Shown one piece after another: positions 13,333 through 64,000 of a stretch of DNA of 64,000 bases. The notes under the pieces are model-generated. The model saw only the letters and a program-made list of their open reading frames with translations. It ran no database searches and was not told the DNA's origin. This DNA is from Candidatus Moanibacter tarae. Its GTDB lineage: Bacteria; Verrucomicrobiota; Verrucomicrobiia; Opitutales; UBA2987. How positions within the stretch are numbered: position 1 is the first letter of the stretch; each line of letters starts with the position of its first letter. The DNA is taken from positions 1,481,477-1,545,476 of the forward strand of contig CP029803.1 in assembly GCA_003226295.1 (NCBI GenBank), in the 5' to 3' direction. A program made the translations under genes and the position numbers.

Positions 13333-13612
13333 ATAACTCCAACTTTGAAGGCCTGTTCTTAACTTAATGGGAACTTCTAAAACACCCGTGTCAGTTCGCT
13401 ATTGGGATTCAATTATCAAGGCAAGGATGTTTCACCACGTTGCTTCGAAGTGGTTTTTTCTTCTCTTTTTGCCTATACGCTTTCGATCTCTACTTCGGAG
13501 GCATCACATTTGCCGACAACCACCTTTAAGGACTCAGTACAGCATTCAAGTATTCTAACTGGACTTTGAATTCGTATATAGGGCGAAAATTCCACTGATT
13601 GAGAAGTCGGCT

Positions 13613-14410: not shown

Positions 14411-14481
14411 AAAGGGGACGGGCCCTTAATACTAAAACAAGCCCGACGAAGAAACTCTTATCAAGGACACTATAAAATAAA

Positions 14482-36135: not shown

Positions 36136-36174
36136 ATTTGTCTCTGCCTTGAACACAAATTATAGTAAGAGCAA

Positions 36175-36900
36175 ATGCGTATCATATTTACGGTCCTAAA
36201 ACGAGAATTCCTGGGCTATTTTCGGTCACCCGTAGCCTATGTCTTCCTTATTGTCTTTCTCATCGCATCCGTTGGTCTTTCCTGGTTCGTGGGGAGTTTT
36301 TTTGAAACTAATAGCGCCAGTCTCCTTAGTTATTTCTATATTCAACCATGGATCTTTCTTTTTCTGATCCCAGCCGTCGGCATGCGTCTCTGGGCGGAAG
36401 AGAAACGTTCCGGAACCTGGGAACTGCTCTTTACTCTCCCCTTGTCTGTTACTCAAGCCGTATTTGGTAAGTTCCTCGCTGGCTGGGCCTTCATCAGTCT
36501 CGCGGTCGTCCTCAGCTTTACTATGCCTCTGACCGTAGGCTATCTTGGCGACCCAGATTGGGGCCCAATTTTTACCGGCTATTTCGGTACTATCTTAATG
36601 GCGGGAAGTTATCTCAGCATCTGCTCATTAACTTCTGCCCTAACCAAGAATCAGGTTATAAGCTTTGTTCTAAGTGTAATCACTTGTCTCATCCTAGTTT
36701 TCCTAGGTTGGAGCGTTTTTAATGACTTGATGCTGGCAGCTAGATTTCCTGTCTGGCTTGTAGACAGCTTTTCTAGTTTCAGTTTTCTGACTCATTTTGA
36801 ACCAATGGTGAAAGGACTCGTTACGGTGCGTGATACCCTATTTTTCCTTTCCGTTATGGGTTTTTCCCTTTTCGTAAATGTGCTGGTACTAGAACGTTGA
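36175..36900 (+). CDS. ABC-2 family transporter permease (GldF-like)
   Basis: Six predicted TM segments, 241 aa, directly after the ATPase. Confidence 0.7.
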   Translation: MRIIFTVLKREFLGYFRSPVAYVFLIVFLIASVGLSWFVGSFFETNSASLLSYFYIQPWIFLFLIPAVGMRLWAEEKRSGTWELLFTLPLSVTQAVFGKFLAGWAFISLAVVLSFTMPLTVGYLGDPDWGPIFTGYFGTILMAGSYLSICSLTSALTKNQVISFVLSVITCLILVFLGWSVFNDLMLAARFPVWLVDSFSSFSFLTHFEPMVKGLVTVRDTLFFLSVMGFSLFVNVLVLER

Positions 36901-36914
36901 GTTGATCACTTACT

Positions 36915-38813: not shown

Positions 38814-38819
38814 ATACGG

Positions 38820-39968
38820 ATGAGATTGAAACGTATTTGTCTAGCTATTGCGATCCTCGGTACACTCGCCGCACTTGCATTATGGATCGATCGATCACAA
38901 TCCCAATTAAAGACGAAGGAGAAACCGGTCGGAGAGAATTTAGTTGCACATAAAACCATAGAGTTAACCAGTGAGATCTTACTCGGTGATTCCGATTTAG
39001 AAAACAAAGTGCATCTTAAGCTGGAAGATAACATCTGGATTCTTCCCGAATATCACCAATTCCCTGTAGATTTTAACAAACTAAAATCTTTTGTTAGTTC
39101 TCTCCTCAACGCAAAATTTATTCGACTAGTAACACGAAATCCGGAACGAATGAAGCAACTTGAATTCAATGAGAATACGGTTCGGTTCATATCTGCCGAG
39201 GGTGAGAATATCTGGTCGCTTATCACTGGAAAAGGGAATAACGCTGGAGGCCGCTTCGTTAAAGTCCAAGATTATGATGCAGCCTACTTGTCCGATATCA
39301 GCTTATACATCGACACCGATGAGAAAAACTGGGCCCAAAAGAAACTCCTCGACATCAAACCGAATCACGTCGAGGTCGTAAAACTAGATTACCCCGGAGA
39401 AGATAGATTCCTTTCTATTGCCCGCGCGACACATGATTCTATTTTTTCCTCTGAGAACATCGCTCAGGACCAGGAAATTAATGACTCAGCGGCCAAAGAT
39501 CTCATTCGCACCCTCATAAATGCCAGATTCTCAGACGTAAAGGAACCCGATAATCCAGACGCTCTGGCAGCCTTTGAAAACTCCCAACATATCGAGTTTT
39601 TTCTCTTTGGTGGTGAAACCTTTTCGTTCCGAATTGGCCGTAACCCGGCCGGATTCATAGGAAAAACAGAGGCCCCGGGGTCACCCGAGCCTGTCGAAAC
39701 TTTGAAATCCGAAGAAGGGCCTGATACGGGAATCGCTGACTTCGAAACCTCCGACAAGCCGGATGTGCCAGGGATGACTGATCTGAGACCTGTTTTTATT
39801 TTTTATTCAACAGCAAATTCCAAGAGCCAGCTCAACGACCTCATGAAACGCGTCTCTCTCTCCTATTCTGACTACACCTTTGATCAGATCAACGAGTCCA
39901 TAACGAGACTCATCCAAGCCAAGAAGGAGCCCAAAGAACTGGCTGAGGAGTCTAAAGACAGCTTGTAG
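38820..39968 (+). CDS. DUF4340-like protein (GldG-associated)
   Basis: N-terminal TM or signal segment and 382 aa. Follows GldG with a 6-nt gap, the conserved partner arrangement. Confidence 0.55.
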   Translation: MRLKRICLAIAILGTLAALALWIDRSQSQLKTKEKPVGENLVAHKTIELTSEILLGDSDLENKVHLKLEDNIWILPEYHQFPVDFNKLKSFVSSLLNAKFIRLVTRNPERMKQLEFNENTVRFISAEGENIWSLITGKGNNAGGRFVKVQDYDAAYLSDISLYIDTDEKNWAQKKLLDIKPNHVEVVKLDYPGEDRFLSIARATHDSIFSSENIAQDQEINDSAAKDLIRTLINARFSDVKEPDNPDALAAFENSQHIEFFLFGGETFSFRIGRNPAGFIGKTEAPGSPEPVETLKSEEGPDTGIADFETSDKPDVPGMTDLRPVFIFYSTANSKSQLNDLMKRVSLSYSDYTFDQINESITRLIQAKKEPKELAEESKDSL

Positions 39969-50371: not shown

Positions 50372-51568
50372 CTATTTCTCTCCCTCTCTCCTTCCCAAGT
50401 AAAGGAGTACCAATGCAAAAATTGGGCTTCCCACAGCAGTCAAGGGCAGAATCCAATAGACTTTGCCGAAAACCGAAAGGAGCAGAATAAGATATATAAA
50501 ATCCCGATTACCTAAAGCATCCATGATTTTCGAGATTCTACTCGATCTCGTCCTAACGACGGAGGAAAACGAGGGGATTTCGGTCCGGGCCCAAAACACT
50601 GATTTTCGGTACACTAACCATGCCGTCCACAACACACCTGCAATTGCAATAGCTGTTACGAGCAATGGCCATTTCCCCTGATTTCCAATCCACCATCCAA
50701 TCCCCATACAAAAAAATACAGCAGAATGTACTAAATTATCCCCCCAAAGATCGAGCTTCATACCTATTCGTGACTCCTGAAACCGAAGCCGCGCTAGTTC
50801 CCCATCACATCCGTCAATTATCGCATGAATGAGAAAGAGAAGTGCACCAGTAAATTGATCTATGGCTCGTGCCGAAAGAAAATACGGGCTACTCGATAAC
50901 CCAATTCCAACACTAAAAATTGTCCACAGATTTGGTGAGATTGGCGTCGATACAAGATGCCTAGAAATTGCCAAGGAGATTCGACGATGGAAATGACGGG
51001 CGATAAGGGAATCACTTTTCTTGATCAATCGCTCGAGGAGCCAGCTCTCGGCCTTATCAATCCCTGCGCCACTAGGAATCAAGGTCCGACCTTGATGGTC
51101 TACCTCAAGTAATTCTGTCTCAATCTCTCGATCAAAGACAAGACCTAGATCCTCTTCGCTTCGCCCATATCGGGTCGACGGAAACAATTTTAATGACTTT
51201 TTCGTTTCGATAGCAGCAGCCACCCCAGTGTCACAATAGAGTCGATCTGGTTTCAGTGGTGTCTCCAACAAAGTTTTGAGCCAAGTGGCGTCTGGGAGTA
51301 CACCCCCGACCATGAATACGATCCTCCTGAATCCAGCCAAATCTAACGTCGCATCCAACGATTTAAACTCTACGGTCGTCCCCTCCAGGATTTTTGTCAC
51401 CTCACGGTCCTCTCTCACGGCCACCCAGATGTTGTCAAATCCCGCTCTTTTAGCAGAGAGAACCATCCGGCGAATTAATGGCAATCCAAGTATAGGCTGA
51501 TCCAGTCTAACCGACTCATCTAATTCATCGGGCCAAAGAAAAACAACCAATTGCGATGAAGTCTCCAT
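50372..51568 (-). CDS. two-domain CDP-alcohol phosphatidyltransferase with N-terminal nucleotidyltransferase-like domain (IPCT/DIPPS-like architecture)
   Basis: The C-terminal membrane domain carries an intact D-G-x2-A-R-x8-G-x3-D-x3-D motif (CDGELARLRFQESRIGMKLDLWGD). The roughly 200-aa soluble N-terminal domain has an NTP-transferase-like pattern (PILGLPLIRRMVLSAKRAG) but lacks the Gly-rich loop. The start is taken at METSSQ. Confidence 0.6.
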   Translation of the reverse strand: METSSQLVVFLWPDELDESVRLDQPILGLPLIRRMVLSAKRAGFDNIWVAVREDREVTKILEGTTVEFKSLDATLDLAGFRRIVFMVGGVLPDATWLKTLLETPLKPDRLYCDTGVAAAIETKKSLKLFPSTRYGRSEEDLGLVFDREIETELLEVDHQGRTLIPSGAGIDKAESWLLERLIKKSDSLIARHFHRRISLAISRHLVSTPISPNLWTIFSVGIGLSSSPYFLSARAIDQFTGALLFLIHAIIDGCDGELARLRFQESRIGMKLDLWGDNLVHSAVFFCMGIGWWIGNQGKWPLLVTAIAIAGVLWTAWLVYRKSVFWARTEIPSFSSVVRTRSSRISKIMDALGNRDFIYLILLLSVFGKVYWILPLTAVGSPIFALVLLYLGRREGEK

Positions 51569-51688
51569 CCTAAAGATTAAATCGTAAAGCAACCGCCTTC
51601 AGTTATCCAGATAAACCTTGTCCGTGAAAAGAAGTCGGAAAGGTTGCTTTTTTCTAGACCGCTAAACTCCCACCTAATTCCTATCTAA

Positions 51689-52699
51689 TTAACGGATCTT
51701 TCCTTCATTCTTGAACCAATTGATACTTTCCAAGAGAGATGTACGACAGTCTCGCATGGGCGGCAAATCTAGTTTTTCAGCCGACCGACTACCGTTAAAA
51801 TGTAGAATTCGCTTTGTTAGCTTTACCCCAGTCACAGTGGCCATCGGTAGTTTTCGAGAGTTGAATAGATAGCGAATCCATTCTTCAAAATAGGCAAAAG
51901 TCAGCGCAACGGTATAAGGGATCCGCCGCTGGGGCGCAGGACGATCCACCAGTTTAGAGAGATATCGAAACAAATCGACAATCGTCCAATTCTCGTGGAC
52001 CAGGAGATAGCTCCTTCCCACTTCACCTCTCTGTGCAGCTATCCAGATTCCGGCTGCGACATCCCTAACATCAATAAAGTTAAGATACCCATCGAGATAG
52101 GCCTTAATTCGCCCATTGCAAAAGTCGCAAATCATTCGAGAAGGAGGACCCATGTTCCGATCGCCTGGACCAATTGGAATACTCGGACGGACAATAACTA
52201 CAGGATCGCCGGATTCCGCAGCCTCTCTGGCTGCCTCTTCAGCTAGCCACTTACTCTCACAATAGGGCCCTATCATATCCTCAAAGTCAGTTTGAGTCTC
52301 TTCAGTGATGACACCTTTCATTCCCTTCGGAGATAGTATGGACTCAGTCGAAACATGCACTATCCTCCCGGCTCCTGCTTTTCGCGCAGCCGAAAGCACA
52401 TTTCGAGTCCCTTGGTGATTGACCTGCTCAAACTCCTCTGAGTCTCGTGCCCAGAGATTAGGGTTCGCCGCTAGATGTAAGACCACTTGGCAGCCTTCTG
52501 CCGCATTTTTTACTCCCAAAGGGTCACGAAGATCGACATGAACAATCTCAACCCTATCCGAAGGCAGGTGATGCGTGAGAGCCCCGGGCTTCTCCAGTAC
52601 TCTTACCTCGCAGCCTTCATCCACAAGCATCTTTACAAGATGCGAACCCACAAAACCGGCCCCTCCAGTTACCAATACCTTCCTTTTATTTTCAGCCAC
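51689..52699 (-). CDS. NAD-dependent epimerase/dehydratase (extended SDR; HpnA-like)
   Basis: KVLVTGGAGFVGSHLVKMLVDEGCEV Rossmann motif, the YxxxK context (YCESK), and 336 aa. Confidence 0.8.
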   Translation of the reverse strand: MAENKRKVLVTGGAGFVGSHLVKMLVDEGCEVRVLEKPGALTHHLPSDRVEIVHVDLRDPLGVKNAAEGCQVVLHLAANPNLWARDSEEFEQVNHQGTRNVLSAARKAGAGRIVHVSTESILSPKGMKGVITEETQTDFEDMIGPYCESKWLAEEAAREAAESGDPVVIVRPSIPIGPGDRNMGPPSRMICDFCNGRIKAYLDGYLNFIDVRDVAAGIWIAAQRGEVGRSYLLVHENWTIVDLFRYLSKLVDRPAPQRRIPYTVALTFAYFEEWIRYLFNSRKLPMATVTGVKLTKRILHFNGSRSAEKLDLPPMRDCRTSLLESINWFKNEGKIR

Positions 52700-52732: not shown

Positions 52733-53791
52733 TCATTCTCTTATTTCGATTCCAATCCGTGTAATCTCAATAAGCCTATCAAGCACATCCAAAGAGGGTG
52801 CCTGCTGCGTCTTCTCCATGCATTTAATGAAATTAAAAATCGATCGATTGAGAGGAATTTTACGTTCTCCTGCAAGCTCGATCAAATGACCGTTAAAAAA
52901 GTCAATCTCCGTCCGTCCTTTCTCGATATCACCCGCCATCGAACAGTAGGTGTTACGTAGTGAGTTTGCGAAAGGCTTTGCCAGGATCTTCGCTAGAAAG
53001 GGATAATGAAGAATGCGATTCACGGTGTCAGGATGGAAGGGCCCAATGACTCCTAGAGGCACACCTGCAGCCTTAAGGATGCCATAGTTTTCCTGCAAAA
53101 TCCGAAAGAAGAAATCACGGGCCTTTCGAATTGTTAAAAGCTGACCATTATCTAGACCAGCCATCGCCGCCAACGGACTAATGGCGGCATTATACATAAC
53201 CTTACTGTACTTGTAAGGAAGAACATTAGGAACAATCTTCACATTAAAATCACCATGCTTCTTGAGGACGTCTAACACCCTTATGAATTTCCCTTGAATT
53301 TCCCTCTTATTGTATTCTCCCCATTGGCCAATGTGGAGGTCTCCTCTCCTCGTAATTCGGGTCTGGGTCTTGTCCGGAAGGCATTCGGAAACAAATGATG
53401 CAATTCCTTCTAAGTTACTGCGTTCCATTAATTCTGAATCGAATCCATTCTGGATCGGCAGCACCCCTGCTGATTTAGGTAATCGCTTAAGAATAGATGC
53501 ATTCTCAAAACATTTCGTACAAAGAATGACAACACACGTATCCGAAGGCTTCCACTCCTCGAAGCAAACAAACTTGGCTGATAATAACGAACGATTATCC
53601 AACCCAATTCCATTACGACTACCCCATTCTAGTTTTCGTCGATCGACTTCGACAAACGTTACATCGAACCCGCCGGAAATGAGAGCATACCCTACCGCGC
53701 AGCCAATGCCTCCAGCCCCAACTATATAGATTTCCACGGAACTTTCACTGGGACCTCTGGTCGAACAACTCCAAATTGATCGTCCTTCCAC
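52733..53791 (-). CDS. 2-dehydropantoate 2-reductase (ApbA/PanE) family oxidoreductase
   Basis: IYIVGAGGIGCAVGYAL dinucleotide fold at the N-terminus and a KPR-like C-terminal helical domain. The true start is probably near 53734, which gives about 330 aa. Confidence 0.65.
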   Translation of the reverse strand: MEGRSIWSCSTRGPSESSVEIYIVGAGGIGCAVGYALISGGFDVTFVEVDRRKLEWGSRNGIGLDNRSLLSAKFVCFEEWKPSDTCVVILCTKCFENASILKRLPKSAGVLPIQNGFDSELMERSNLEGIASFVSECLPDKTQTRITRRGDLHIGQWGEYNKREIQGKFIRVLDVLKKHGDFNVKIVPNVLPYKYSKVMYNAAISPLAAMAGLDNGQLLTIRKARDFFFRILQENYGILKAAGVPLGVIGPFHPDTVNRILHYPFLAKILAKPFANSLRNTYCSMAGDIEKGRTEIDFFNGHLIELAGERKIPLNRSIFNFIKCMEKTQQAPSLDVLDRLIEITRIGIEIRE

Positions 53792-53947
53792 TACCCTTAA
53801 AAATTAAATGATTCACACTTTATGATAGCACGTTCCTACTACATTCAAGTACATTACTTCATATCTCGATATACTTGTAATCCAGGAGGCTTTGGACCTA
53901 TCTAACTTGAAAAATTCCAAGACCCAGATAAGGCATAGTAATTGAAC

Positions 53948-54712
53948 CTACTGGACAACAAGCCCACCGTCAACCGTCATCATATGGCCAATAACAAATG
54001 AAGCTTTGTCCGAACAGAGCCAGATGACAGCCTCAGCGATCTCCTCGGGCTTTCCGACACGTCCAATCGGCTGCCAACTATCAGCTTCCGCCTTTAAGTC
54101 AGGGTTGCTCGCGTAGATACGATCCATCAGCGGCGTGTTGACTAGCCCCGGGCACACGGCATTGATACGAATGCCCCGGCCCGCATACTCCACAGCGGCC
54201 GACTTGGTCAATCCGGCGACCCCATGCTTACTTGCCACATAGATTGGTTGATCAGGTATACCAACCAACCCTGCAACTGAAGAGCTGTTAACAATTGCGC
54301 CGGACCCTTGTTCCAGCATCTGCGGGATTTGGTACTTCATACAAAGCCAGGCCCCCTTAAGGTTTGTATCGATCAGCGTTTGGAAAGTCTCCTCAGCATG
54401 TCGCTGGTCTGGATTGGAAATTTCCCGCTCAATACCTGCGTTATTAAAGGCAAAATCGAGTCGGCCATAGGTCTCAATAGTCTTGCGAATCAGAACCTTG
54501 ACCTCGTCAGAAACCGTTACATCGGCTCTAACGAAGGTTGCCTCTCCGCCAAAGTCTTCAATCATGTTAACAGTCTCACCAGCACCTTTTTCATACATGT
54601 CGGAGACAACTGTCTTGGCACCCTCTCGAGCAAAGGCTAGAGCAGTGGCCCGACCTATCCCAGATGCACTACCAGTTACAAGTGCGACGTTACCCGCGAA
54701 CCATTCTTTCAT
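53948..54712 (-). CDS. SDR family oxidoreductase (FabG-like)
   Basis: ALVTGSASGIGRA, NNAG, catalytic YVASKHGV, and the PG motif. 254 aa. Confidence 0.85.
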   Translation of the reverse strand: MKEWFAGNVALVTGSASGIGRATALAFAREGAKTVVSDMYEKGAGETVNMIEDFGGEATFVRADVTVSDEVKVLIRKTIETYGRLDFAFNNAGIEREISNPDQRHAEETFQTLIDTNLKGAWLCMKYQIPQMLEQGSGAIVNSSSVAGLVGIPDQPIYVASKHGVAGLTKSAAVEYAGRGIRINAVCPGLVNTPLMDRIYASNPDLKAEADSWQPIGRVGKPEEIAEAVIWLCSDKASFVIGHMMTVDGGLVVQ

Positions 54713-54850
54713 TTTTATTCCTCATCAACAGGGTTACCATATTTTCCCAACCATTTTTATGTAATAAAATGCTCGATCTATCTACCCATCAATAATTTAA
54801 ATCAGTAAACAAGTCCATCCACCGGAAAATACAAAAGACGTTGAAGAGAT

Positions 54851-56110
54851 TCATGAATCAGCTATCCCGTCTCGGCATATTGCCGCTGTCGCATACCATC
54901 TCTGGTCTTTTATGACGGTTTCCCACCATCGGCTCATGTCTCTTTCGTTCATCCTTCCCCAATCTCTCGTCCCATCCTGTAAAGCTTCACCCATTCTTTG
55001 CGCTAATGCAACCAGCCTATCACCTTCCAACCGCTGCTCATCATCCCAAAAGGTCAGAGCAGTATCCAGTGATTGATTAGCCTTAAGGATCTCTGTAAGG
55101 GACATAACACTATACAGTGCCTTGGTAGCTCCAGCCGCAACATGGGGTCGGACAACAGCAGATGCATCACCAAGCAGACAGATATTACCCCTTCGGTAAC
55201 TCGGTATATTGCCATCAAATATTGCCTGTATAAACGGTCGGCCGGTGCGAATAATCATTTCTGCAATAAATTCGGGCAGAAACCTCAGAGCCTGCTCATG
55301 GAGCTCTGAAATCCTCTCATCCGAAACACTACCAGCGGGTAATGAAGTAGCGTGGATTGTACCGTTTCGGTCGGTGAGAGATTTAGCTAAATCGACTTCA
55401 GGCGTATTAACATACCATCCCCAGTTGAGTCGCCGTTGTCCAACCTCGGTTTCGCCATTACGCCCCGGGACAAGGTAAGCTATGAGATGGCCCAAAGGGG
55501 TAACAGCAAAGATATTAATCCCTTCCAGAACCGTAACGTCGTTGATAAGCTGCTCATCTATCAAACCTCGCCACATTATGTATCCAGCATATCGAAGTCC
55601 TTGGTCAGGGTATAGTATACTCCGGCCAGTCGACATGTACCCATCGGCGCAAACGACAAGATCAAAGACAGCATCTTGACCAGAAGCTAGTTCGACTACG
55701 GTGCCCCCTTCTCTCTCCTGAAAACCTGTCACTTCGCAACCTTGATGATAAATATCGTCACGTACACGTTTACGCAGAGTCCGATAGAGTGCATCCCAGT
55801 TGGTTGCAGCAATGTCGAAGTTTTGCTCCCAAAGAACACGTCTTCCACCCCCAGAGCGAGTATAGAAATCTCGCCTCCTGATGGGTAATATAGCCATTTT
55901 AGTATCAAAAATGTCACGCTCCTGGAGTGCCTCGACGAGGGCAAATGGGAATCCGATACCCGCACCTCGATCCTTTAGTGAACCCGTTGAGCGCTCGAAA
56001 ACTGTAACATCACACCCAGCGCGATCGAGTTCTATCGCAGCGGCACACCCAGCAATGGACCCCCCGATTATACACGTCCTTAATCCTTGGGCTACTCCTC
56101 TTTCTGACAT
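54851..56110 (-). CDS. FAD-dependent monooxygenase (UbiH/PHBH-like aromatic hydroxylase family)
   Basis: CIIGGSIAGCAAAIELDRAGCDVTVFER FAD fold, the distal DG motif (VVCADGYMS), and the GD motif (LLGDASAVVRPH). Confidence 0.8.
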   Translation of the reverse strand: MSERGVAQGLRTCIIGGSIAGCAAAIELDRAGCDVTVFERSTGSLKDRGAGIGFPFALVEALQERDIFDTKMAILPIRRRDFYTRSGGGRRVLWEQNFDIAATNWDALYRTLRKRVRDDIYHQGCEVTGFQEREGGTVVELASGQDAVFDLVVCADGYMSTGRSILYPDQGLRYAGYIMWRGLIDEQLINDVTVLEGINIFAVTPLGHLIAYLVPGRNGETEVGQRRLNWGWYVNTPEVDLAKSLTDRNGTIHATSLPAGSVSDERISELHEQALRFLPEFIAEMIIRTGRPFIQAIFDGNIPSYRRGNICLLGDASAVVRPHVAAGATKALYSVMSLTEILKANQSLDTALTFWDDEQRLEGDRLVALAQRMGEALQDGTRDWGRMNERDMSRWWETVIKDQRWYATAAICRDGIADS

Positions 56111-56298: not shown

Positions 56299-56391
56299 TG
56301 GCGGAGAGGGCGGGATTCGAACCCGCGAGGCCCTTTTTAGAGGCCTACTCCCTTAGCAGGGGAGCGCTTTCGGCCACTCAGCCACCTCTCC
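56299..56391 (-). tRNA. tRNA-Ser (anticodon GCU)
   Basis: The minus-strand sequence is GGAGAGGTGGCTGAGTGGCCGAAAGCGCTCCCCTGCTAAGGGAGTAGGCCTCTAAAAAGGGCCTCGCGGGTTCGAATCCCGCCCTCTCCGCCA. It has a 7-bp acceptor stem (GGAGAGG/CCTCTCC), a D-loop, anticodon stem CTCCC/GGGAG with loop CTGCTAA (anticodon GCT), a long variable arm typical of Ser, the T-loop GGTTCGAATCC, and an encoded CCA. Confidence 0.85.
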
Positions 56392-56641: not shown

Positions 56642-57631
56642 TTAGTTAGACCTAGTTCTCAATAATTGCTGACTTTCCACAATCTGCCATAGCAGTAGCG
56701 CAGGAATTCCAAAAAGGAGGGTACGGGCTCGAACCAAAAGAGCGAGCGCAAGTCCAGTTTCAGGACCTAGGCCGAGGGCCGTTCCTAGAACCATGAAACC
56801 ACCCTCCTGAACACCTAGAGCACCAGGAATAAAAAACACGGCATTGCGTACCGCATGCGTCATGCTTTCAAGCATTATAGCTTCGATTATACCAATTGGA
56901 TGACCGAGAAAATGAAGACCGATTAGAATCTGACCAGTCCCTAAAAAGACCCCCATCATGCGCCAGAACACTGCATAAAAGAGATCCCTTTTTTTCTGAT
57001 AGAGCTTATCTAGGGCTGTATCCAAGGCCTTTGCACCCCCTGTAACACTCTGCCAGTTTGCCACTTTTACGATCTTCTCAATGCGTTGTGCTAGGCGTGA
57101 AAACATTCCCCAGCGTTGAGCAATGTAGAACCCCATAACGCACAACAAAAACAAAGAAATCCCACCGATCGCAGCATGGGCAGTTTCCCCAAATCCGTAG
57201 TAATAGATGAAGAAAGCTATACCCAAAATAACGAAAATCGACTGAGAAGCGATCGCCAAAGTCACGTCGACGATGACGCTCGCACCAGCCTCGGAACTCC
57301 GAGATCCCCTAAGAGAAGCCAATCTAACCCTAAGCAACTCGCCTCCCACCTGAGCAACTGGCAATAGACTGTTTGCGGAAGTTCCCACCCACCGAATCCA
57401 ACAAACGGAGACGAATGAAGGCCGTCCCGCTGCACCCAATAAAATCCACCAACAAATAGCACTGGCCGAGAATGGGATTACACTGTAGGCTACCATTGCA
57501 AGCAGTCCCCACCCAGACTGAACGAGGGCCTCGGCCACCTTTCCGAATCCCTGAATCACAACCAATCCAAGCATCAATGCTATACCGATCAGCCAGAGTA
57601 GGATAGTGAAAATACGCATCGTAAACCTCAA
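56642..57631 (-). CDS. UPF0104 / lysylphosphatidylglycerol-synthase-TM-region (flippase-like, HpnL-like) membrane protein
   Basis: About 8 TM helices and 329 aa. The N-terminus MRIFTILLWLIGIALMLGLVVIQGFGKVAEAL, the conserved positions and the length fit the LPG_synthase_TM-only family. Confidence 0.65.
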   Translation of the reverse strand: MRFTMRIFTILLWLIGIALMLGLVVIQGFGKVAEALVQSGWGLLAMVAYSVIPFSASAICWWILLGAAGRPSFVSVCWIRWVGTSANSLLPVAQVGGELLRVRLASLRGSRSSEAGASVIVDVTLAIASQSIFVILGIAFFIYYYGFGETAHAAIGGISLFLLCVMGFYIAQRWGMFSRLAQRIEKIVKVANWQSVTGGAKALDTALDKLYQKKRDLFYAVFWRMMGVFLGTGQILIGLHFLGHPIGIIEAIMLESMTHAVRNAVFFIPGALGVQEGGFMVLGTALGLGPETGLALALLVRARTLLFGIPALLLWQIVESQQLLRTRSN

Positions 57632-57935
57632 ATCAAGTTCATCAGCGTCATTGAAAAGCTATACAATTGTCAATCGGTTCGTGCCGCAGACAAATACGTA
57701 GGACCTTCAAATGAGTATCATTATATACTATAGTGAAATAATCCGAAAAAATTCGGACGCTGGGTTTATACCCAGCATAGAAAATGCCAAGTTACCCTCC
57801 AATAAAATACTTCATAAAGTGCCTTAAATATTTGACTGTAAATCAATAACAGATTTAGGAACTAAATTAATTTGGACCCAAAGAACGGCTAGAGCATTTC
57901 AACAAGGAGTACAATTAAGAGGCACAACGGAACAA

Positions 57936-58451
57936 TTGATCCAAAGACTCTTCAAACTAATCCACCTCTTCCCCTCAATACCCATGCAACCCCATAACTG
58001 GAAGATCTCTTCGATATACTGTTCTATAGCCCTAGTTTCTTATTCCCAAGTCTGCGGCGTGAATTTAGCAGAGGGAAAACTGCTCTCCGGCACACTCAGT
58101 ATTCAGATCTCCGGATTGCGAAGCAAAAAAGGAACACTCAGGATCGGTCTATTTAATTCTAAGGAGACATTCTCCAAGAGAGGGAAAGCTCTTCGCTCAG
58201 CGGTAGTGAAACCGAATTCAAGAAAGGTCGAAACCAGCTTTAAGGAACTACCCTACGGAAATTACGCTATTTCCCTCTACCACGACGAGAACGACAATGA
58301 CAAATACAACCTAGGCCTTGTACTGTTTTCACGCGAGCGCTACGGGTTTTCCAACAATGTAAAACCCGGTCTCAGGGGACCCCCGTCCTTCGAAGCCGCG
58401 ATGTTCCTAATGAACTCAGATGAGAAAGTCGTAACAATAAAATTACATTAG
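57936..58451 (+). CDS. DUF2141-like secreted protein
   Basis: Signal-peptide-like start. GTLRIGLFNSKETF and YHDENDNDKYNLGLVLFSRERYGFSNN match the DUF2141 consensus pattern as I recall it. Confidence 0.5.
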   Translation: MIQRLFKLIHLFPSIPMQPHNWKISSIYCSIALVSYSQVCGVNLAEGKLLSGTLSIQISGLRSKKGTLRIGLFNSKETFSKRGKALRSAVVKPNSRKVETSFKELPYGNYAISLYHDENDNDKYNLGLVLFSRERYGFSNNVKPGLRGPPSFEAAMFLMNSDEKVVTIKLH

Positions 58452-58472
58452 GAGGTAAATACGGTGTTCTCG

Positions 58473-59492
58473 CTAGTCCATTTTTCGCCACTCATCGAAA
58501 GCCGAAGTGGTACGGACACAACCCACAGTGCAGGTTTTGTTGCAAAATTTTGGTGTATGGAACTGCTCTCGAAGGTCATCATGAGTATAGTCCATTAAAT
58601 TCTTGGAGAATATTCCCCGAGTTTGAGAGCACCAGTGGACGATTCCGAATTCGTCTATGTAGAGATAACGTGCTCCAGCCCGACATTTGAATGGAGCAAC
58701 TCCGTCTCGAATAAGTTTTTCCCTGTAACGATCAGCATCCTCCAACCTCGGACCAATCATCTGTTTGACCTCTCGATAGGCTGCCAACTCTTCCGTATTT
58801 AACCGCAATTGGCCGTTAGAATCATGAATAAGGAGGATTCGTGGAACAAAACCTCGGTCCCTGGCAAATCGAACCACCTCTACTGCTTCTTCAGGAGGCG
58901 CACTTCCAATCACACCGCTCATCACCACTTTGAATCGGGCATGTTTGCTTAATAGTTCGAGTTTCTTTCGGAGTGGCTGGAGCGTCTTTACAGTGATCTT
59001 ATTCGGCTTTACTCCATCGACGCTAATCTGCATATCAGTCAACCCACTAACATTGAGAGATTCTATGAGTTCTTCGGTAAGCCGATACCCATTAGTAATC
59101 ATCAGCCGCCGCCGTACACCAAGGGCTTTCAACTCGCTAATGAGGCCCGGTAAATCAGGGTGGAGCGTCGGCTCTCCTCCAGTTAGGCAAACCGCCCAGG
59201 TTTTTAGTTGGCGTAATTTTCTGAACCGACTGATCAAGACTTCCGATGCTATCGGCTCCGAGGTCTTATCGAATTCCGAACAGTAAGTACAAGAGAGATT
59301 GCAGCGCCGGACAATGACGATTTGCGCTAGGAACGGTCCGTATCGGATCCATTGAAAAGAGCTCAAATTACGGCCAGCCATACTATCTGGCGACACCTCT
59401 GCATACTCTTCTCTTCCTCCACTGGACGAATGCTTGTCCTTCTTCTCCTTCTCTATCAAGGACTTTATCCCCCAATTGAATCTGCCAGCCAT
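58473..59492 (-). CDS. radical SAM enzyme with C-terminal auxiliary Cys cluster
   Basis: CNLSCTYC (CxxxCxxC) followed by GGEPTL. The C-terminal cysteines (FKCRAG...HWCSQ...FCNKTCTVGC) suggest a SPASM/twitch-like second cluster. Convergent with DUF2141 and co-directional with dxs. Confidence 0.75.
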   Translation of the reverse strand: MAGRFNWGIKSLIEKEKKDKHSSSGGREEYAEVSPDSMAGRNLSSFQWIRYGPFLAQIVIVRRCNLSCTYCSEFDKTSEPIASEVLISRFRKLRQLKTWAVCLTGGEPTLHPDLPGLISELKALGVRRRLMITNGYRLTEELIESLNVSGLTDMQISVDGVKPNKITVKTLQPLRKKLELLSKHARFKVVMSGVIGSAPPEEAVEVVRFARDRGFVPRILLIHDSNGQLRLNTEELAAYREVKQMIGPRLEDADRYREKLIRDGVAPFKCRAGARYLYIDEFGIVHWCSQTRGIFSKNLMDYTHDDLREQFHTPKFCNKTCTVGCVRTTSAFDEWRKMD

Positions 59493-59576
59493 TTGATTGT
59501 CATGAGATAAACTCCACTTCTCGAGACTTATTAAGAGAGCGAAAGCTCCCTCACTAATGGACCGCTGAATTCTCGA

Positions 59577-61493
59577 TTAATGGGCCAATGTCGCCCTTTC
59601 ACGAGGCACAGAAATTTGGTTCAAGCGCTTCAGGATACGATTGAAGATCGAATTATTGTCGAGGTCGTTAACAGCACGTAGATCACCGACAGAACTCCCA
59701 TGATCAACAAAACGGTCAGGCCATCCAACAATCTCAACAGGAATTTCACAGGAGGACTCATTGAGAGCTTCCAAGACAGAGGAACCAAAGCCTCCTTTTG
59801 AAACATGATCTTCTATTGTCACGATCAGTTCCATCTTACTGGCGTGCTGCATAAGAAGCTCAAGATCGATTGGTTTAGCGAACCTGGCATTGACTACACC
59901 GGCTGAAATCCCTTCTTCAACTTCCAATCGATCCGCTAATTTGAGAGCTTCCTGAACCCAAGGACCTAGAGCCCAAAAAACAAGCTCTTTCCCCTCCCTT
60001 AGAACCTCGGCCTTGCCAATATCAATATATTGGGGGTCATCTTTTATAGTCACACCTGAAGCCTCCCCACGCGGATAACGAACAAAAGTCGGATCGGATG
60101 TATAAAGGCTCGTCCAAAGCATGTCCACTAATTCGTCTTCGTCCTTGGGCTGCATCACAACCGTACCCGGTATGCATCGTAAATAAGCTATATCGAAAAG
60201 ACCATGATGAGTCGGACCGTCCTGGGGAGATAGTCCAGCCCGGTCCATACAAAATGTCACTGGAAGGTTTTGGACGCCAACATCGTGAATGATCGGATCG
60301 TAGGCCCGCTGCAGCATTGTTGAGTAGATGGCACAAACCGGTCGAAATCCTTGGGTCGCTAATCCAGCCGCAAACAGCACAGCATGCTCTTCCGCCATCC
60401 CCACATCAAAAAATTGTTTTGGGGAGGCTTCGCGCAGCATATTCAAACTGGTTCCCGCCGACATAGCAGCCGTTATTCCCACCACTTTCGAGTCCTCTTT
60501 TGCAAATCGGACCATAGCCCTCCCAAAAACGTCCTGAAATTTGGGCGGACCTCCTGGTTTTCCCGGCTTGCTCTTACCTGTTGTAATATTAAAGGGGCTC
60601 GGACCATGGAATTTTTCCGGATCTTTCAACGCCGGTTCGTAACCCTTTCCTTTTGTGGTCATGATGTGGAGAACAACCGGACGGTCACAATTCTTACAGA
60701 ATTCGAGGTAGTGGGTAACCGCTTCTAGATCATTCCCCTCAATTGGACCAAGGTAGCGCAGTCCGTAGTTTTCGAAAAGTGACGATGGTACAAACAACTC
60801 TTTGGCCTCTTTTTTTGCCTTTTTCCCGATTTTTATAAGGGATTCACCACCAGGCAATTTTTCCAGGAACTTACTGACATCCTGATCGATACGGTTGTAA
60901 ATTGGATTGGTGATCAACTCATTGAGATACTTTGATATAGCCCCAACATTCGGCGAGATAGACCACTTGTTGTCATTTATTACGACGATGAGCCGCTTAG
61001 TGTGAATCGCCACATTATTAAGGGCTTCCATAGTGATTCCACAGGTTAATCCCGCATCGCCAACCACGGCTACAACGTGCTCATCACTCCCTCTGATATC
61101 TCGTGCCACCGCCATTCCAATAGCAGCGGAAAGCCCGGTTCCTGCATGCCCCGCACCATAACTGTCGTGAGCACTCTCCGTTCGACAGAGGAAACCACTT
61201 ACCCCCCCCGTCATCCGAATATTCTTAAAACCGTCTCCTTGCCGTCCAGTTAGAAGCTTGTGGACATAGCCCTGATGGGAAACATCAAAAGTGAATTTGT
61301 CTCGCGGGGAGTCGAACACCCGGTGCAAGGCAAGAGTGAGTTCTACCACTCCCAGATTGGGGCCCAAATGACCCCCATTCACAGACGTTACTTCGATAAG
61401 TTCTTCACGGATTTCATCAGCTAACTTAACCAACTCGTGCTGAGTAAGCTTTCTAATATCCGAGGGTTCATTTATTTCATGTAGGATTGCCAT
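59577..61493 (-). CDS. dxs: 1-deoxy-D-xylulose-5-phosphate synthase
   Basis: N-terminal GGHLGPNLGVVELTLALHRVF, the TPP motif GDAGLTCGITMEALNNV, and a transketolase-like C-terminal. 638 aa. Confidence 0.92.
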   Translation of the reverse strand: MAILHEINEPSDIRKLTQHELVKLADEIREELIEVTSVNGGHLGPNLGVVELTLALHRVFDSPRDKFTFDVSHQGYVHKLLTGRQGDGFKNIRMTGGVSGFLCRTESAHDSYGAGHAGTGLSAAIGMAVARDIRGSDEHVVAVVGDAGLTCGITMEALNNVAIHTKRLIVVINDNKWSISPNVGAISKYLNELITNPIYNRIDQDVSKFLEKLPGGESLIKIGKKAKKEAKELFVPSSLFENYGLRYLGPIEGNDLEAVTHYLEFCKNCDRPVVLHIMTTKGKGYEPALKDPEKFHGPSPFNITTGKSKPGKPGGPPKFQDVFGRAMVRFAKEDSKVVGITAAMSAGTSLNMLREASPKQFFDVGMAEEHAVLFAAGLATQGFRPVCAIYSTMLQRAYDPIIHDVGVQNLPVTFCMDRAGLSPQDGPTHHGLFDIAYLRCIPGTVVMQPKDEDELVDMLWTSLYTSDPTFVRYPRGEASGVTIKDDPQYIDIGKAEVLREGKELVFWALGPWVQEALKLADRLEVEEGISAGVVNARFAKPIDLELLMQHASKMELIVTIEDHVSKGGFGSSVLEALNESSCEIPVEIVGWPDRFVDHGSSVGDLRAVNDLDNNSIFNRILKRLNQISVPRERATLAH

Positions 61494-61783
61494 TATTGAA
61501 ATAACGATGGTTAGTCTCGGACAAACTGATTCCTGTGTTGATTCAGCGTACGGGCACTCTCAAATTCATCCGGGAAAAAAACGAGAATCCAACTCCAATC
61601 CCACAGTTCAATTGGTCAGTGGTGACACAATTAAGATCGTAGGGAAATGGTTAAATACCTTATTGCCATATTGCAACCACTTTTCGATTATCAAAATTTC
61701 ATATATTCTGTATAATCTGATTTCCATTTTTACCCAAATGAAGCGCTCCTAGATTGCAGAGCATTAACCTGGTTCTCCCTTCA

Positions 61784-63034
61784 ATGATAGCGATAATTTA
61801 TAAGTTCCCCGGGGATGCCTGGGTTCAACTTGGTGGAATGTCCGTCCTTGAGCGGAACCTGCGGTCGCTCGATAAAATCAACATTGAAAAAGTACGAATC
61901 GTCCTTCCTCCCGGAGAGTATCCACCAACGATATCCATTCCAAGGCCCCTCGGAATAAAACAAGAGATTGTCCACGAAAAACTAGTCGAGAATAACCTAC
62001 TTTCTACGTTAGGAGTGGCATTCCCAAAGAATTCCGAGTCTGCGTTGATCTTTCACGCTAACTTACTAACAGACCCCAGGATTTTTATCTTCTTAGCAGG
62101 CTTGAACTGTGCATTTTTTTCCCTAGATCCAGACGCAACAACACCGCAAAAAAATTGGAGGATCGCCCTACTAAGATTTAAAGACCTGGAAAAGGTGGAT
62201 GAACTGTGGGAAAAGGTAGATCTAATAACTCAAAACGATATAGCCAGCTATGACACCGAAGTCCGCGGGGAAGTCGATCCTTACTGTCTAGGTATAAATA
62301 GTCCCGAAAAACTGCACCAAGGCTGGGAGATCCTCATACGGAGATCGCAGAAACGGCCAGGTGATTTCATTGAGAAATACGTCCATCCCGACATACAAAA
62401 CTGGATTGTCAAAAGGATCTGCGACACCTCGATAACTCCGAATCAGATCTCTTTCATTGTCATCGCCTGCGCTGTAGCTGGCGCAATCCTATTCTATCAT
62501 GGACTTTTTCTTATCGCATGGATTTTGGCATTTTCAGCAACAATACTTGACGGCGTAGATGGCAAACTCGCACGTGTTAAACTGATGACTTCCAAGCTTG
62601 GTAAGTTTGAGCATATTTTTGATTACTTTGGTGAAAACGCTTGGTACCTCTGTCTAGCAAGAAATCTTGCTCTTACCTCCGGGCCCTCTGCATGGCTCTG
62701 TGGTATTGCCATTTCAGCCTGCGACACCGTGGATCGAATTATTGCCGCCTTCTTTGAAAAAAGAATGAAAATAACGCTTGACGAATATTCACTGTTCGAC
62801 CGCGACTTTCGACTGATTGGGGGCCGCAAAACCATATACCTTTTTTTCCTTCTGGTCGGTTTTTTTTCCGACTCCCTCTATTCTGCTCTTAAAATTTCAT
62901 TAGCCTGGGCAATCTTCACTGTCTTCATACACGCAACCAGAAGCTTCTGGCATTTCCGGAGAGCACCAAGGGTTGGTACCATCTCAGCCATACCTGAACA
63001 GGCCAAGTCTTCTTCAGATGGAACGGGGACATAG
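61784..63034 (+). CDS. second two-domain CDP-alcohol phosphatidyltransferase paralog with degenerate catalytic motif
   Basis: Same architecture as the gene at 50372-51568, with an N-terminal NTP-transferase-like soluble domain (IAIIYKFPGDAWVQLGGMSVLERNL). The membrane domain carries DGKLARVKLMTSKLGKFEHIFD, where the first conserved Asp of G-x3-D-x3-D is His and the second Asp is shifted. Start at the internal ATG. Confidence 0.55.
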   Translation: MIAIIYKFPGDAWVQLGGMSVLERNLRSLDKINIEKVRIVLPPGEYPPTISIPRPLGIKQEIVHEKLVENNLLSTLGVAFPKNSESALIFHANLLTDPRIFIFLAGLNCAFFSLDPDATTPQKNWRIALLRFKDLEKVDELWEKVDLITQNDIASYDTEVRGEVDPYCLGINSPEKLHQGWEILIRRSQKRPGDFIEKYVHPDIQNWIVKRICDTSITPNQISFIVIACAVAGAILFYHGLFLIAWILAFSATILDGVDGKLARVKLMTSKLGKFEHIFDYFGENAWYLCLARNLALTSGPSAWLCGIAISACDTVDRIIAAFFEKRMKITLDEYSLFDRDFRLIGGRKTIYLFFLLVGFFSDSLYSALKISLAWAIFTVFIHATRSFWHFRRAPRVGTISAIPEQAKSSSDGTGT

Positions 63035-63365
63035 CTTTCTAATGAATAAGCGAATGCTCTCATCTCTTTAGGAAGATTTAGGGCCAGCTTTGGCCATCTA
63101 GCAGGGCAAAGATATTTCCTGAACCAAATCAATAATCGTTGGATCTAAGATGGGCTTTAGAATAAGATTGAAGATGTTTATCTTTGATACACCGGTACAC
63201 TGGTCTCAACGGTTCCATTCGCTACCTTGGTCATTTGGTTCACGTAATGAAAGGAGGTTTAAAACCTTCATGAATCAATTAGCACACCCTTTGAACAATC
63301 AAGGGATTTCTCTAATCCAAACCTAATTGGGAATCAGAATATTCCACCAGTACTTTAACAACAGC

Positions 63366-64000
63366 CTAGTTACTACGTCGCGAGCGCAGAAGATAGTAAG
63401 AAGGCAGTATGATCAAGGTCGTGGTCATGGTAAGGAAGACTCCCAGACAAAGCAACTGGCCAAGACTAGCGGTACCTCGATGAGAGAGAAACATGAGCGT
63501 GCCAAAACTAAACATAGTCGTGAGCCCGCTGAAAAGGACACCTCTAGCAGTACTAGTGTGTAGAAAGTCTGTATTCGTACCGGAGATGCTCCGCATGCGA
63601 TGGACCATATGGATACCATTATCAACTCCTAGTCCAAGAAGAAGAGGCAGGGCTATTATATTGGCAAAGTTAAAGGATGCTCCCATGAGAACAGTCGCAG
63701 CGCCGGTGAAGAGACCAGCAACAAGCAAGGGGATCAAGACGAGAAGGGGTTCCGCCCAATTCCTAAAGATGGCTATCAATAGTACCGTAATAAGTAATAA
63801 GGCACTGAGAAAAGCCTGTTTAAAAGAATAGACAATGGTCCTCCCCGCTTCATATGTAAATATGGGACCCGAAGTTGCATTGGAAGCAACCGTCCTTACT
63901 TCATTGACGAAGCGGATTAAGGCTTCATTTTCGGATATGTTAAGGTTTGAAAAAACTTGGATCCGAAAGCGTTCGTTTTCGCTAATCCAACGGTCGCGAA
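63366..64000 (-). CDS. MMPL/RND-superfamily transporter, C-terminal portion (HpnN-like); gene continues beyond window end
   Basis: The reading frame stays open from the window edge to the stop at 63366. The translation (…FVNEVRTVASNATSGPIFTYEAGRTIVYSFKQAFLSALLLITVLLIAIFRNWAEPLLVLIPLLVAGLFTGAATVLMGASFNFANIIALPLLLGLGVDNGIHMVHRMRS…) is the characteristic last TM bundle of MMPL/RND exporters. The ORF track's 137-aa call begins at an internal TTG. Confidence 0.65.
   Translation of the reverse strand, partial: RDRWISENERFRIQVFSNLNISENEALIRFVNEVRTVASNATSGPIFTYEAGRTIVYSFKQAFLSALLLITVLLIAIFRNWAEPLLVLIPLLVAGLFTGAATVLMGASFNFANIIALPLLLGLGVDNGIHMVHRMRSISGTNTDFLHTSTARGVLFSGLTTMFSFGTLMFLSHRGTASLGQLLCLGVFLTMTTTLIILPSYYLLRSRRSN

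Follow-up and report, generated by a model that had tools for sequence, protein, structure and literature searches.

A candidate polar-lipid head-group locus with Hpn-like transport genes in Candidatus Moanabacter tarae

Candidatus Moanabacter tarae is a marine member of the Opitutae with a genome of 2.63 Mb and a GC content of 46% (PMC6256433). The window analysed here—a stretch of 64,000 nucleotides of this genome (contig CP029803.1)—carries toward its end a group of genes comprising a radical SAM (rSAM) enzyme, two CDP-alcohol phosphotransferases of type A and type B (CDPOH-A and CDPOH-B), and several proteins resembling the Hpn families of hopanoid loci. The locus is best filed with the CDP-alcohol (CDP-inositol-type) polar-lipid head-group clusters, enlarged by the rSAM and by transport parts of Hpn type. 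Gene identities were obtained from a listing of open reading frames (ORFs) and scans with hidden Markov models. A public contig identical to the window (L001) extends the sequence by 10 kb beyond position 64000, and ORFs within 8 kb of the rSAM gene were clustered across a comparative set of 80 loci (labelled Lxxx).

Genes of the locus

The initial annotation of this window had named a UPF0104 (HpnL-like) protein, a DUF2141 protein, an rSAM enzyme, dxs, and an MMPL/RND transporter with an HpnN-like C-terminus running off the window. All of these are recovered (Table 1); the transporter fragment aligns to positions 656–860 of TIGR03480, and the complete gene encodes 877 residues (L001, 5495–8128). 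Both CDPOH genes, an HpnG-like nucleosidase beyond the window, and a tRNA-Ser had been overlooked. An HpnA-like epimerase, placed "just upstream" at the time, is present as well; the wording is loose, however, since about 4 kb, three unrelated genes, and the tRNA-Ser separate it from HpnL. The genes of the locus lie on both strands and form at least four transcription units.

Table 1. Features of the locus. Coordinates refer to the window unless L001 is given; scores are in bits.
Feature	Coordinates	Strand	Evidence and remarks
CDPOH-A	50372–51592	−	PF01066 40.8; NF041135 74.5
HpnA-like extended-SDR epimerase/dehydratase/reductase	51689–52699	−	TIGR03466 314.5; PF01370, PF01073
HpnL-subfamily UPF0104/LPG_synthase_TM membrane protein (MprF flippase-domain family)	56642–57631	−	TIGR03476 310.3; PF03706 83
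DUF2141 protein	57936–58451	+	PF09912 102; N-terminal hydrophobic segment
rSAM enzyme	58473–59492	−	PF04055
dxs, 1-deoxy-D-xylulose-5-phosphate synthase	59577–61493	−	TIGR00204 713.8
CDPOH-B (IPCT/DIPPS / AF2299 architecture)	61754–63034	+	PF01066 34.0; probable start ATG 61784
HpnN-like MMPL/RND (HAE3-type) putative inner-membrane lipid exporter, C-terminal 210 residues	63366–64000	−	TIGR03480 259; PF03176
HpnG-like PNP_UDP_1 nucleosidase, 229 residues	L001 4797–5486		TIGR03468 164.6; ends 8 bp upstream of the RND gene
tRNA-Ser(GCU)	56299–56391	−	Rfam RF00005 60.3; ARAGORN
Three intervening genes: PRK07236-type FAD monooxygenase, SDR, ApbA/PanE-like reductase	52733–56110	−	Family matches
81-residue ORF between dxs and CDPOH-B; gene status doubtful	61507–61752	+	JGI call

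CDPOH-A and CDPOH-B comprise about 400 residues each and feature the same architecture: a C-terminal PF01066 domain, which passes the cutoff of 22 bits in both proteins, and an N-terminal domain of about 190 residues without a family match. In alignment A2, CDPOH-A shows the canonical motif DGxDGxxAR...G-x3-D-x3-D. The motif of CDPOH-B reads DGxDGxxAR...G-x2-E-x3-D, with Glu in place of the third Asp and a spacing shortened by one residue—the Glu being kept in all type-B members. The best NCBIfam match of either protein is NF041135 (IPCT/DIPPS), which is covered in its C-terminal half only and with 74.5 bits for CDPOH-A and 61.3 bits for CDPOH-B, where 580 would be required. Searching with a profile built from 20 members of the family retrieves PDB 4o6m (AF2299) at 2.8e-32 and 4mnd (IPCT-DIPPS) at 5e-26, the latter over nearly the full length and including the cytosolic nucleotidyltransferase-fold domain. 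The N-terminal domains, however, carry no GxGxR nucleotide-binding signature in the alignment and have no significant match to a Pfam NTP-transferase family (E = 0.2); judged by sequence, they are probably non-catalytic. The proteins thus resemble IPCT/DIPPS (AF0263, 4MND) and AF2299 (4O6M) of Archaeoglobus fulgidus in combining a nucleotidyltransferase-fold domain with a six-helix CDP-alcohol phosphotransferase domain, and CDPOH-A also in its motif. They differ in their low scores (61–75 vs 580 bits), the unrecognisable N-domain signature, the type-B Glu, and a context that is bacterial, mesophilic, and lipid-linked. CDPOH-B is 63% identical in the sister species Moanabacter sp. (L006), and type-A orthologues adjoin the rSAM gene in three alphaproteobacterial loci (L023, L024, and L043) and three loci of Opitutales (L008, L010, and L011).

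The rSAM protein carries the CX3CX2C motif at C64/C68/C71 and, toward the C-terminus, the pattern C270-x12-G283-x4-C288 followed by C317, C321, and C325, which is invariant in alignments of 55 sequences. These features—CX3CX2C, a C-x(9-15)-G-x4-C hairpin, and further Cys residues—place it in the twitch/SPASM subgroup of the radical SAM superfamily, and a β-hairpin is predicted at residues 276–286. The Cys-rich C-terminal domain hence appears twitch/SPASM-like and would bind a second cluster. The AlphaFold (AF2) model has a pLDDT of 83, and its nearest solved fold is BlsE (TMq 0.64), followed by SuiB, SkfB, MoaA, and viperin, with BtrN and SpeY ranking lower. Several of these enzymes (BlsE, MoaA, viperin, SpeY, and BtrN) use nucleotides, nucleoside sugars, or cyclitols, which offers a lead and no functional assignment. 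With BlsE, BtrN, SpeY, MoaA, and viperin the protein shares the partial TIM-barrel core, the C-x12-G-x4-C β-hairpin, and further Cys ligands, whereas it differs from them by an identity of 14–20%, by reaching no family cutoff, and by the distinct C317-x3-C321-x3-C325 pattern.

The best family matches of the rSAM are confined to the core: Tes (NF045702) at 71.7 of the 450 bits demanded, and MoaA at 64.6 bits. Membership in the Tes/GDGT-type tail-coupling enzymes is rejected on this score and on the lack of the large Tes extensions; the alignment with PDB 7tol spans 160 residues only. A lipid tail is nevertheless possible as substrate. In GenBank, the protein (AWT60157.1) is labelled "GTP 3',8-cyclase" (MoaA), and the HpnA-like protein (AWT60150.1) "2-alkyl-3-oxoalkanoate reductase" (OleD). 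Both names are probably misannotations because the matches fall far below the family cutoffs (MoaA, 64.6 vs 284 bits; OleD, 105.6 vs 580 bits).

The rSAM family is large and well conserved. At E ≤ 1e-5 it collects about 4,000 database proteins, with identities of 59–94% among the best 120, and loci from GTDB genomes of at least five phyla contain it at 53–81% identity. Carriers are Opitutales, Chthoniobacterales/Udaeobacter, Alphaproteobacteria (Roseiarcus and relatives), Myxococcota, Acidobacteriota, Binatota, and Desulfobacterales. "Long" ORFs of 578–588 residues in Myxococcota are set aside as a variant: no family matches their additional N-terminal part, which probably reflects an ORF over-extension in high-GC DNA. 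A literature search found no description of this family.

Among the neighbouring genes, HpnL passes the TIGR03476 cutoff of 195.65 bits and aligns over residues 5–319 of 329. The DUF2141 protein is probably secreted; an alternative start at 57984 would yield 155 residues. The dxs gene precedes the rSAM gene in the same orientation with a gap of 84 bp, its product (AWT60158.1; all three accessions by exact look-up) passes the TIGR00204 cutoff of 465.95 bits, and an identical copy of the protein occurs on a Tara Oceans contig and others.

Conservation of the neighbourhood

The gene order HpnN/CDPOH/dxs/rSAM/DUF2141/HpnL recurs in other Opitutales with amino acid identities of 45–83%. All eight Opitutales loci feature dxs–rSAM–DUF2141 with dxs directly upstream of the rSAM gene; the CDPOH gene or genes, HpnL, and the HpnN-like gene are also kept where the contig extends far enough. 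DUF2141 adjoins the rSAM in each of these eight loci and in no other group of the 80-locus set. L011 contains a contiguous set of 10 genes: HpnN, HpnA, CDPOH-A, myo-inositol-1-phosphate synthase (MIPS), an NTP-transferase, CDPOH-B, dxs, rSAM, DUF2141, and HpnL. Its HpnA, which lies inside the cluster, passes TIGR03466 with 490.3 bits. MIPS of the relatives belongs to PF01658, and their stand-alone NTP-transferase matches best the IPCT half of NF041135 (119–127 bits). Genes for MIPS, the NTP-transferase, and a HAD protein are found in the related loci L008, L010, L011, L012, L024, and L086. The IPCT-like NTP-transferase is, furthermore, fused to PF01066 in Nitrospinales and other marine lineages (P0376, P0279, P0281, and others) and once to MIPS; these fusions provide Rosetta-stone support for an IPCT-like role in the activation of inositol phosphate. 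HpnL orthologues stand next to rSAM and CDPOH genes in L006, L011, L023, L024, L043, and L033.

The M. tarae copy is rearranged: the HpnA-like gene and CDPOH-A are separated from HpnL by the tRNA-Ser(GCU) and three nonconserved genes. The tRNA stands between HpnL and the FAD monooxygenase/SDR/ApbA block, where the Opitutales synteny breaks, and therefore may mark the boundary of a rearrangement or insertion. The three genes of this block were rejected as cluster members—they have no counterparts in the L006 and L011 clusters and lie beyond the tRNA—and are probably outside the module. An Amidohydro_2 gene is a further candidate member. In L006, a second, different radical SAM gene and a Mutator-family transposase follow immediately after HpnL (13239–15610).

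Parts of the Opitutales gene order recur in three other phyla and, with the recurrence within the order itself, this makes the grouping of the locus more than chance. The alphaproteobacterial locus L024 reads MIPS–HAD–?–Aminotran_3–GFO–rSAM–CDPOH-A–HpnL–MlaA–HpnN, and the HpnN proteins of L023 and L024 pass the strict NF052374 model with 1237 and 1231 bits, respectively. MIPS, HAD, the class-III aminotransferase, and the GFO-family dehydrogenase of L024 (3777–17111, an uncultured alphaproteobacterium) follow a logic resembling aminocyclitol formation, i.e., inositol to inosose to inosamine. The acidobacterial locus L086 combines HpnA-like, HpnG-like, and SQS-like genes with dxs, an HpnL-like gene, HAD, NTP-transferase, CDPOH, MIPS, and rSAM; all of its Hpn and SQS scores stay under the cutoffs.

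In Chthoniobacterales-type loci, CDPOH-B is divergently adjacent to the rSAM in 26 of 27 cases at a distance of 0–251 bp. The cluster around this pair contains Spt-like, sphingolipid-desaturase, fatty-acid-hydroxylase, GNAT, KdsR-like SDR, IPCT-like, Polysacc_synt flippase, and ABC genes. L061, L062, L074, and about 20 other Chthoniobacterales/Udaeobacter loci show this sphingolipid-like cluster also with Lipid_DES, a short CDP-OH transferase, and GT9 glycosyltransferases, which suggests that soil Verrucomicrobia make a complex phospho- or glyco-sphingolipid. Subsets of rSAM, CDPOH, HpnL, HpnN-like, and HpnA-like genes neighbour each other in Alphaproteobacteria, Acidobacteriota, the unclassified locus L033, and two verrucomicrobial orders. 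The rSAM/CDPOH pair is a cassette placed beside differing lipid systems: sphingolipid-type genes, genuine hopanoid transport, and, in Opitutales with their near-complete lack of hopanoid synthesis, Hpn-like genes.

The 81-residue ORF has a 47% identical counterpart at the same place in L006 and no match in a family search; a distance of 13 bp separates its start from that of the divergent dxs gene, and it overlaps the likely promoter region, with a promoter-like site at 61688–61716. The promoter and terminator scan is uninformative since its counts stay at the level of shuffled sequence. A scan with Rfam matches the tRNA alone and no riboswitch. Beyond the window follow, in order, the rest of the RND gene, the HpnG-like gene, a GFO oxidoreductase, lpxA, lpxC-fabZ, efp, and thymidine phosphorylase, with the lpxC-fabZ fusion gene, lpxA, and the GFO_IDH_MocA oxidoreductase occupying 1178–4421 of L001. 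This GFO/IolG-like gene (L001, 3372–4421) was not counted as an inositol dehydrogenase of the cluster: its best match, IolG, gives 163 of the 355 bits required, and the 21 kb examined of the sister species L006 contain no counterpart. A further match is to UDP-GlcNAc 3-dehydrogenase, and a GnnA-like role in lipid A is equally likely because it adjoins lpxA and lpxC-fabZ. Farther upstream in the window, a four-gene ABC system (35209–39968, plus strand; ABC_tran, ABC2_membrane, ABC_transp_aux/DUF7088, and DUF4340) resembles gliding-associated transporters of the GldA/F/G type.

The hopanoid question and other alternatives

The initial annotation had offered two readings of the Hpn-like genes: the distal part of a hopanoid locus with its core past 64 kb, or recruitment for a different isoprenoid or polar lipid. 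It had also stated that neither squalene-hopene cyclase (SHC, gene shc) nor HpnC/D/E lies within the window, which holds. Across the area searched for a hopanoid core—74 kb of the 2.63 Mb genome, i.e., the window and the next 10 kb—no shc, hpnC/D/E, or hpnH was found. The Pfam tables (window from about 7.6 to 64 kb, and 10 kb beyond) contain no match to PF13243, PF13249, or PF00494, and tblastn with genuine SHC, SQS_PSY, and HpnE retrieves nothing at E ≤ 0.01, whether from the window, from its flank, or from five further loci of Opitutales. In a survey of the order Opitutales, HpnH occurs in 0 of 21 genomes and SHC in 1 of 21 (10.1101/2025.07.29.667474, Table S5).

The profile scores divide the Hpn-like genes. 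The full-length RND protein passes TIGR03480, the hypothetical equivalog of HpnN (915.7 vs 751.85 bits), but fails the strict equivalog NF052374 (636.3 vs 1100 bits). HpnA (TIGR03466, 314.5 vs 367.65 bits) and the HpnG-like protein (TIGR03468, 164.6 vs 187.1 bits) fail as well. TIGR03470 (HpnH) is not among the 25 best families of the window rSAM, the 25th of which scores 31.8 bits, and a homologue of the rSAM reaches 32.8 of 225.05 bits on it, in the core only. An identity of the rSAM with HpnH is rejected on these about 33 vs 225 bits and because Pfam shows no DUF3463 C-terminal domain. Of the four models proposed earlier as a check, TIGR03476 and TIGR03480 are hence passed and TIGR03466 and TIGR03470 are not. 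A flank free of core genes, together with scores under the cutoff for all Hpn families, had been named as the outcome that speaks against a hopanoid link: the 10 kb of flank are indeed free of them, yet the second half does not apply since two families pass. A 437-residue glycosyltransferase at 21146–22459 (plus strand), with a faint Glyco_transf_21 match, reaches 45.7 bits on HpnI against a cutoff of 310 and is, by this score, no hopanoid gene. Compared with hopanoid loci, hpnA, hpnG, hpnL, and hpnN provide the nearest named families for four genes and dxs is clustered, whereas 74 kb are devoid of shc, hpnCDE, and hpnH and the scores of HpnA, HpnG, and strict HpnN stay too low. The region is thus not supported as the tail of a hopanoid locus, and recruitment for a different isoprenoid or polar lipid agrees better with the evidence. 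Papers from 2025–26 still give the functions of HpnL and HpnA as unknown, and a literature search found no paper that ties hopanoid genes to MIPS or CDP-inositol.

The alternative that survives best, although we regard it as unlikely, is that the genes truly serve hopanoids as an accessory and export set—HpnA, HpnG, HpnL, HpnN, and a dedicated dxs—with the core elsewhere in the chromosome and the CDPOHs and the rSAM decorating the polyol side chain. Clustered dxs genes and dxs paralogues are typical of many hopanoid loci. With 310 bits for HpnL and 916 bits for HpnN, these two exceed their TIGRFAM cutoffs, while HpnA and HpnG miss them narrowly; in Alphaproteobacteria, the rSAM–CDPOH–HpnL triad stands beside strict-equivalog HpnN and MlaA/HpnM, and in the Anaeromyxobacteraceae locus L042 the rSAM stands beside shc. 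In a published synteny table, furthermore, CDP-alcohol phosphatidyltransferase ranks sixth by frequency near shc; in the part of that paper available, the family is given by number only, without a name, and is outside the four candidate families discussed. On the other side, shc, SQS_PSY, and HpnE are missing from the 74 kb and from the five other Opitutales loci, the order is almost free of HpnH and SHC as surveyed (10.1101/2025.07.29.667474), and the strict HpnN model is failed (636 < 1100 bits). The Chthoniobacterales rSAM/CDPOH pair, moreover, resides in a sphingolipid-type cluster without Hpn genes.

A second alternative, which appears improbable, assigns to the rSAM an HpnH/MqnE-like reaction: dxs would supply an olefinic isoprenoid other than a hopanoid, which would receive the 5'-deoxyadenosyl group, the HpnG-like protein would remove adenine, the HpnA-like protein and the CDPOHs would elaborate the ribosyl or polyol tail, and HpnL and the HpnN-like pump would export the product. 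It draws on divergent HpnG-like PNP_UDP_1 genes that accompany the rSAM in three phyla (M. tarae and L006; L086; L042), on the L042 rSAM in the usual place of hpnH, and on dxs, which immediately precedes the rSAM in Opitutales and is part of the L086 cluster together with a gene of the SQS_PSY family. The similarity to HpnH is, however, limited to the core (32.8 bits), and the rSAM carries a twitch-type auxiliary-cluster domain, a feature not known to be required by adenosyl-adding rSAM enzymes. Nucleosidases beside rSAM genes are explained more simply by the removal of 5'-deoxyadenosine, and in most loci a PNP_UDP_1 gene is missing from the vicinity of the rSAM.

It is quite improbable that the locus forms no functional unit at all, i.e., that a housekeeping dxs merely neighbours unrelated membrane-protein genes and that the synteny reflects shared ancestry within one order. 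The spread over two strands and at least four transcription units, the chance-level outcome of the promoter and terminator scans, and the rearranged M. tarae copy interrupted by a tRNA and three unrelated genes would agree with such a case; that subsets of the same families adjoin in Alphaproteobacteria, Acidobacteriota, L033, and two verrucomicrobial orders argues against it. Least probable of all is a soluble osmolyte of the di-myo-inositol-phosphate (DIP) type made by the CDPOHs, as by IPCT/DIPPS in hyperthermophiles, with lipid-like neighbours that are unrelated: the best NCBIfam and PDB matches (IPCT/DIPPS and AF2299), the full DIP gene logic of the relatives (MIPS, IPCT-like, DIPPS-like, and HAD phosphatase), and the marine habitat are outweighed by scores of 61–75 bits far under the cutoff of 580, a M. 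tarae cluster without MIPS, IPCT-like gene, and HAD, the constant linkage to flippase-like, RND, MlaA, and sphingolipid genes, and the fact that DIP is known solely from thermophiles.

Proposed function and significance

The closest known counterpart is the alternative inositol-lipid cluster of the Bacteroides vulgatus/Prevotella type, which consists of MIPS, an NTP-transferase, a CDP-alcohol phosphatidyltransferase, and HAD (Heaver et al. 2022, PMC9246714). Its neighbours include LPG-synthase-like and CarboxypepD_reg-like (β-sandwich-domain) genes, and the pathway itself is experimentally unconfirmed (PMC9246714). The M. tarae locus is alike in placing CDPOH next to a UPF0104/LPG_synthase_TM protein and a small protein of β-sandwich type; the related clusters of Opitutales, Alphaproteobacteria, and Acidobacteriota add MIPS, the IPCT-like NTP-transferase, and HAD, and for both systems CDP-inositol rather than a PIP intermediate is proposed. 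It differs by the additional rSAM, HpnN-like RND, dxs, and HpnA- and HpnG-like genes and by the N-terminal degenerate cytidylyltransferase-like domain of its transferases. The M. tarae copy itself has no MIPS, NTP-transferase, or HAD and thus does not qualify as a cluster of this type.

The reading we favour, with a confidence a little above even, is that the region represents a rearranged and trimmed copy of a conserved cross-phylum module for the synthesis and export of a polar membrane lipid whose head group is phosphodiester-linked. Gene identities, architectures, motifs, and synteny are observed; the biochemical steps that follow, with the alcohol, the lipid anchor, and the rSAM reaction, are inferred from them. 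CDPOH-A and CDPOH-B would join a CDP-activated partner and an alcohol by a phosphodiester, and the twitch-type rSAM would modify the head group or its activated precursor—in the relatives most likely an inositol-derived cyclitol. The precursor genes of the relatives (MIPS, IPCT-like, DIPPS-like, and sometimes HAD) spell a CDP-inositol route, which makes a four-part module the most economical arrangement. By analogy with the flippase domain of MprF, the HpnL-type UPF0104 protein may flip the product over the inner membrane, from where it would be extracted toward the outer membrane by the HpnN-like RND pump; in the periplasm, the probably secreted DUF2141 protein may assist the pump. The HpnG-like nucleosidase, apparently cotranscribed with the pump, would most simply clear 5'-deoxyadenosine, the by-product of the rSAM. 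Apparent cotranscription of dxs with the rSAM hints at an isoprenoid anchor; dxs may, however, just be the housekeeping copy.

Several observations weigh against a phosphodiester-headgroup module of this kind. MIPS, the IPCT-like NTP-transferase, and HAD are absent from the M. tarae window and both flanks, and the cluster of the sister species L006 lacks them likewise. No M. tarae MIPS appears among the best 120 homologues listed, a list that does not discriminate since MIPS is about 75% identical across phyla. No M. tarae IPCT-like protein appears among the homologues listed, which reach down to 48% identity; an orthologue would therefore probably have appeared. The CDP-inositol logic is thus borrowed from relatives and, as the inositol-supply genes are missing from this cluster and turned up nowhere else in these searches, the donor and the alcohol in M. 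tarae may be different ones, e.g., CDP-diacylglycerol in place of CDP-inositol. CDPOH-B carries Glu for the third motif Asp, and its putative transferase activity is unproven. The rSAM occurs without a CDP-alcohol transferase in 29 of 32 alphaproteobacterial and 10 of 10 myxococcal loci, so that its reaction may be independent of the head-group enzymes. In L042 (10900–18194), the rSAM is divergent beside HpnG-like, shc, SQS_PSY, and HpnE genes and occupies the usual position of hpnH, with no HpnH among the neighbours tested; together with the strict HpnN of L023 and L024, this indicates that the connection to hopanoids is real in some lineages. Finally, neither the rSAM family, in any of its members, nor HpnL or DUF2141 has a known product.

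A wider proposal is put forward tentatively and with more doubt than belief: rSAM, IPCT/DIPPS-like CDPOH, and HpnL could form a so far unrecognised, horizontally mobile pathway that adds an rSAM-modified cyclitol phosphate (or a related phospho-alcohol) to non-glycerol anchors, with HpnL as the flippase and an HpnN-type exporter. Alphaproteobacteria would then use hopanoid polyols as anchors, Chthoniobacterales ceramides, and Opitutales a different anchor that is possibly isoprenoid. Such a pathway would give HpnL, and perhaps HpnA, a first functional context, and it would predict phosphorylated hopanoid or ceramide lipids—a class not found in a literature search.

The recurring neighbourhood of DIPPS-like CDPOHs, a twitch-type rSAM, and the MIPS and IPCT-like genes of the relatives offers a testable hypothesis for HpnL and HpnA. 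It also bears on annotation: TIGRFAM "Hpn" hits together with dxs, when taken as evidence for hopanoids in metagenomes, can yield false positives, since they are found here in an order almost wholly without SHC and HpnH. A very conserved rSAM family, furthermore, carries the name of MoaA in GenBank and has no assigned reaction. Should a phospho-cyclitol lipid on a non-glycerol anchor prove true, it would link the bacterial biology of inositol lipids, sphingolipids, and hopanoids.

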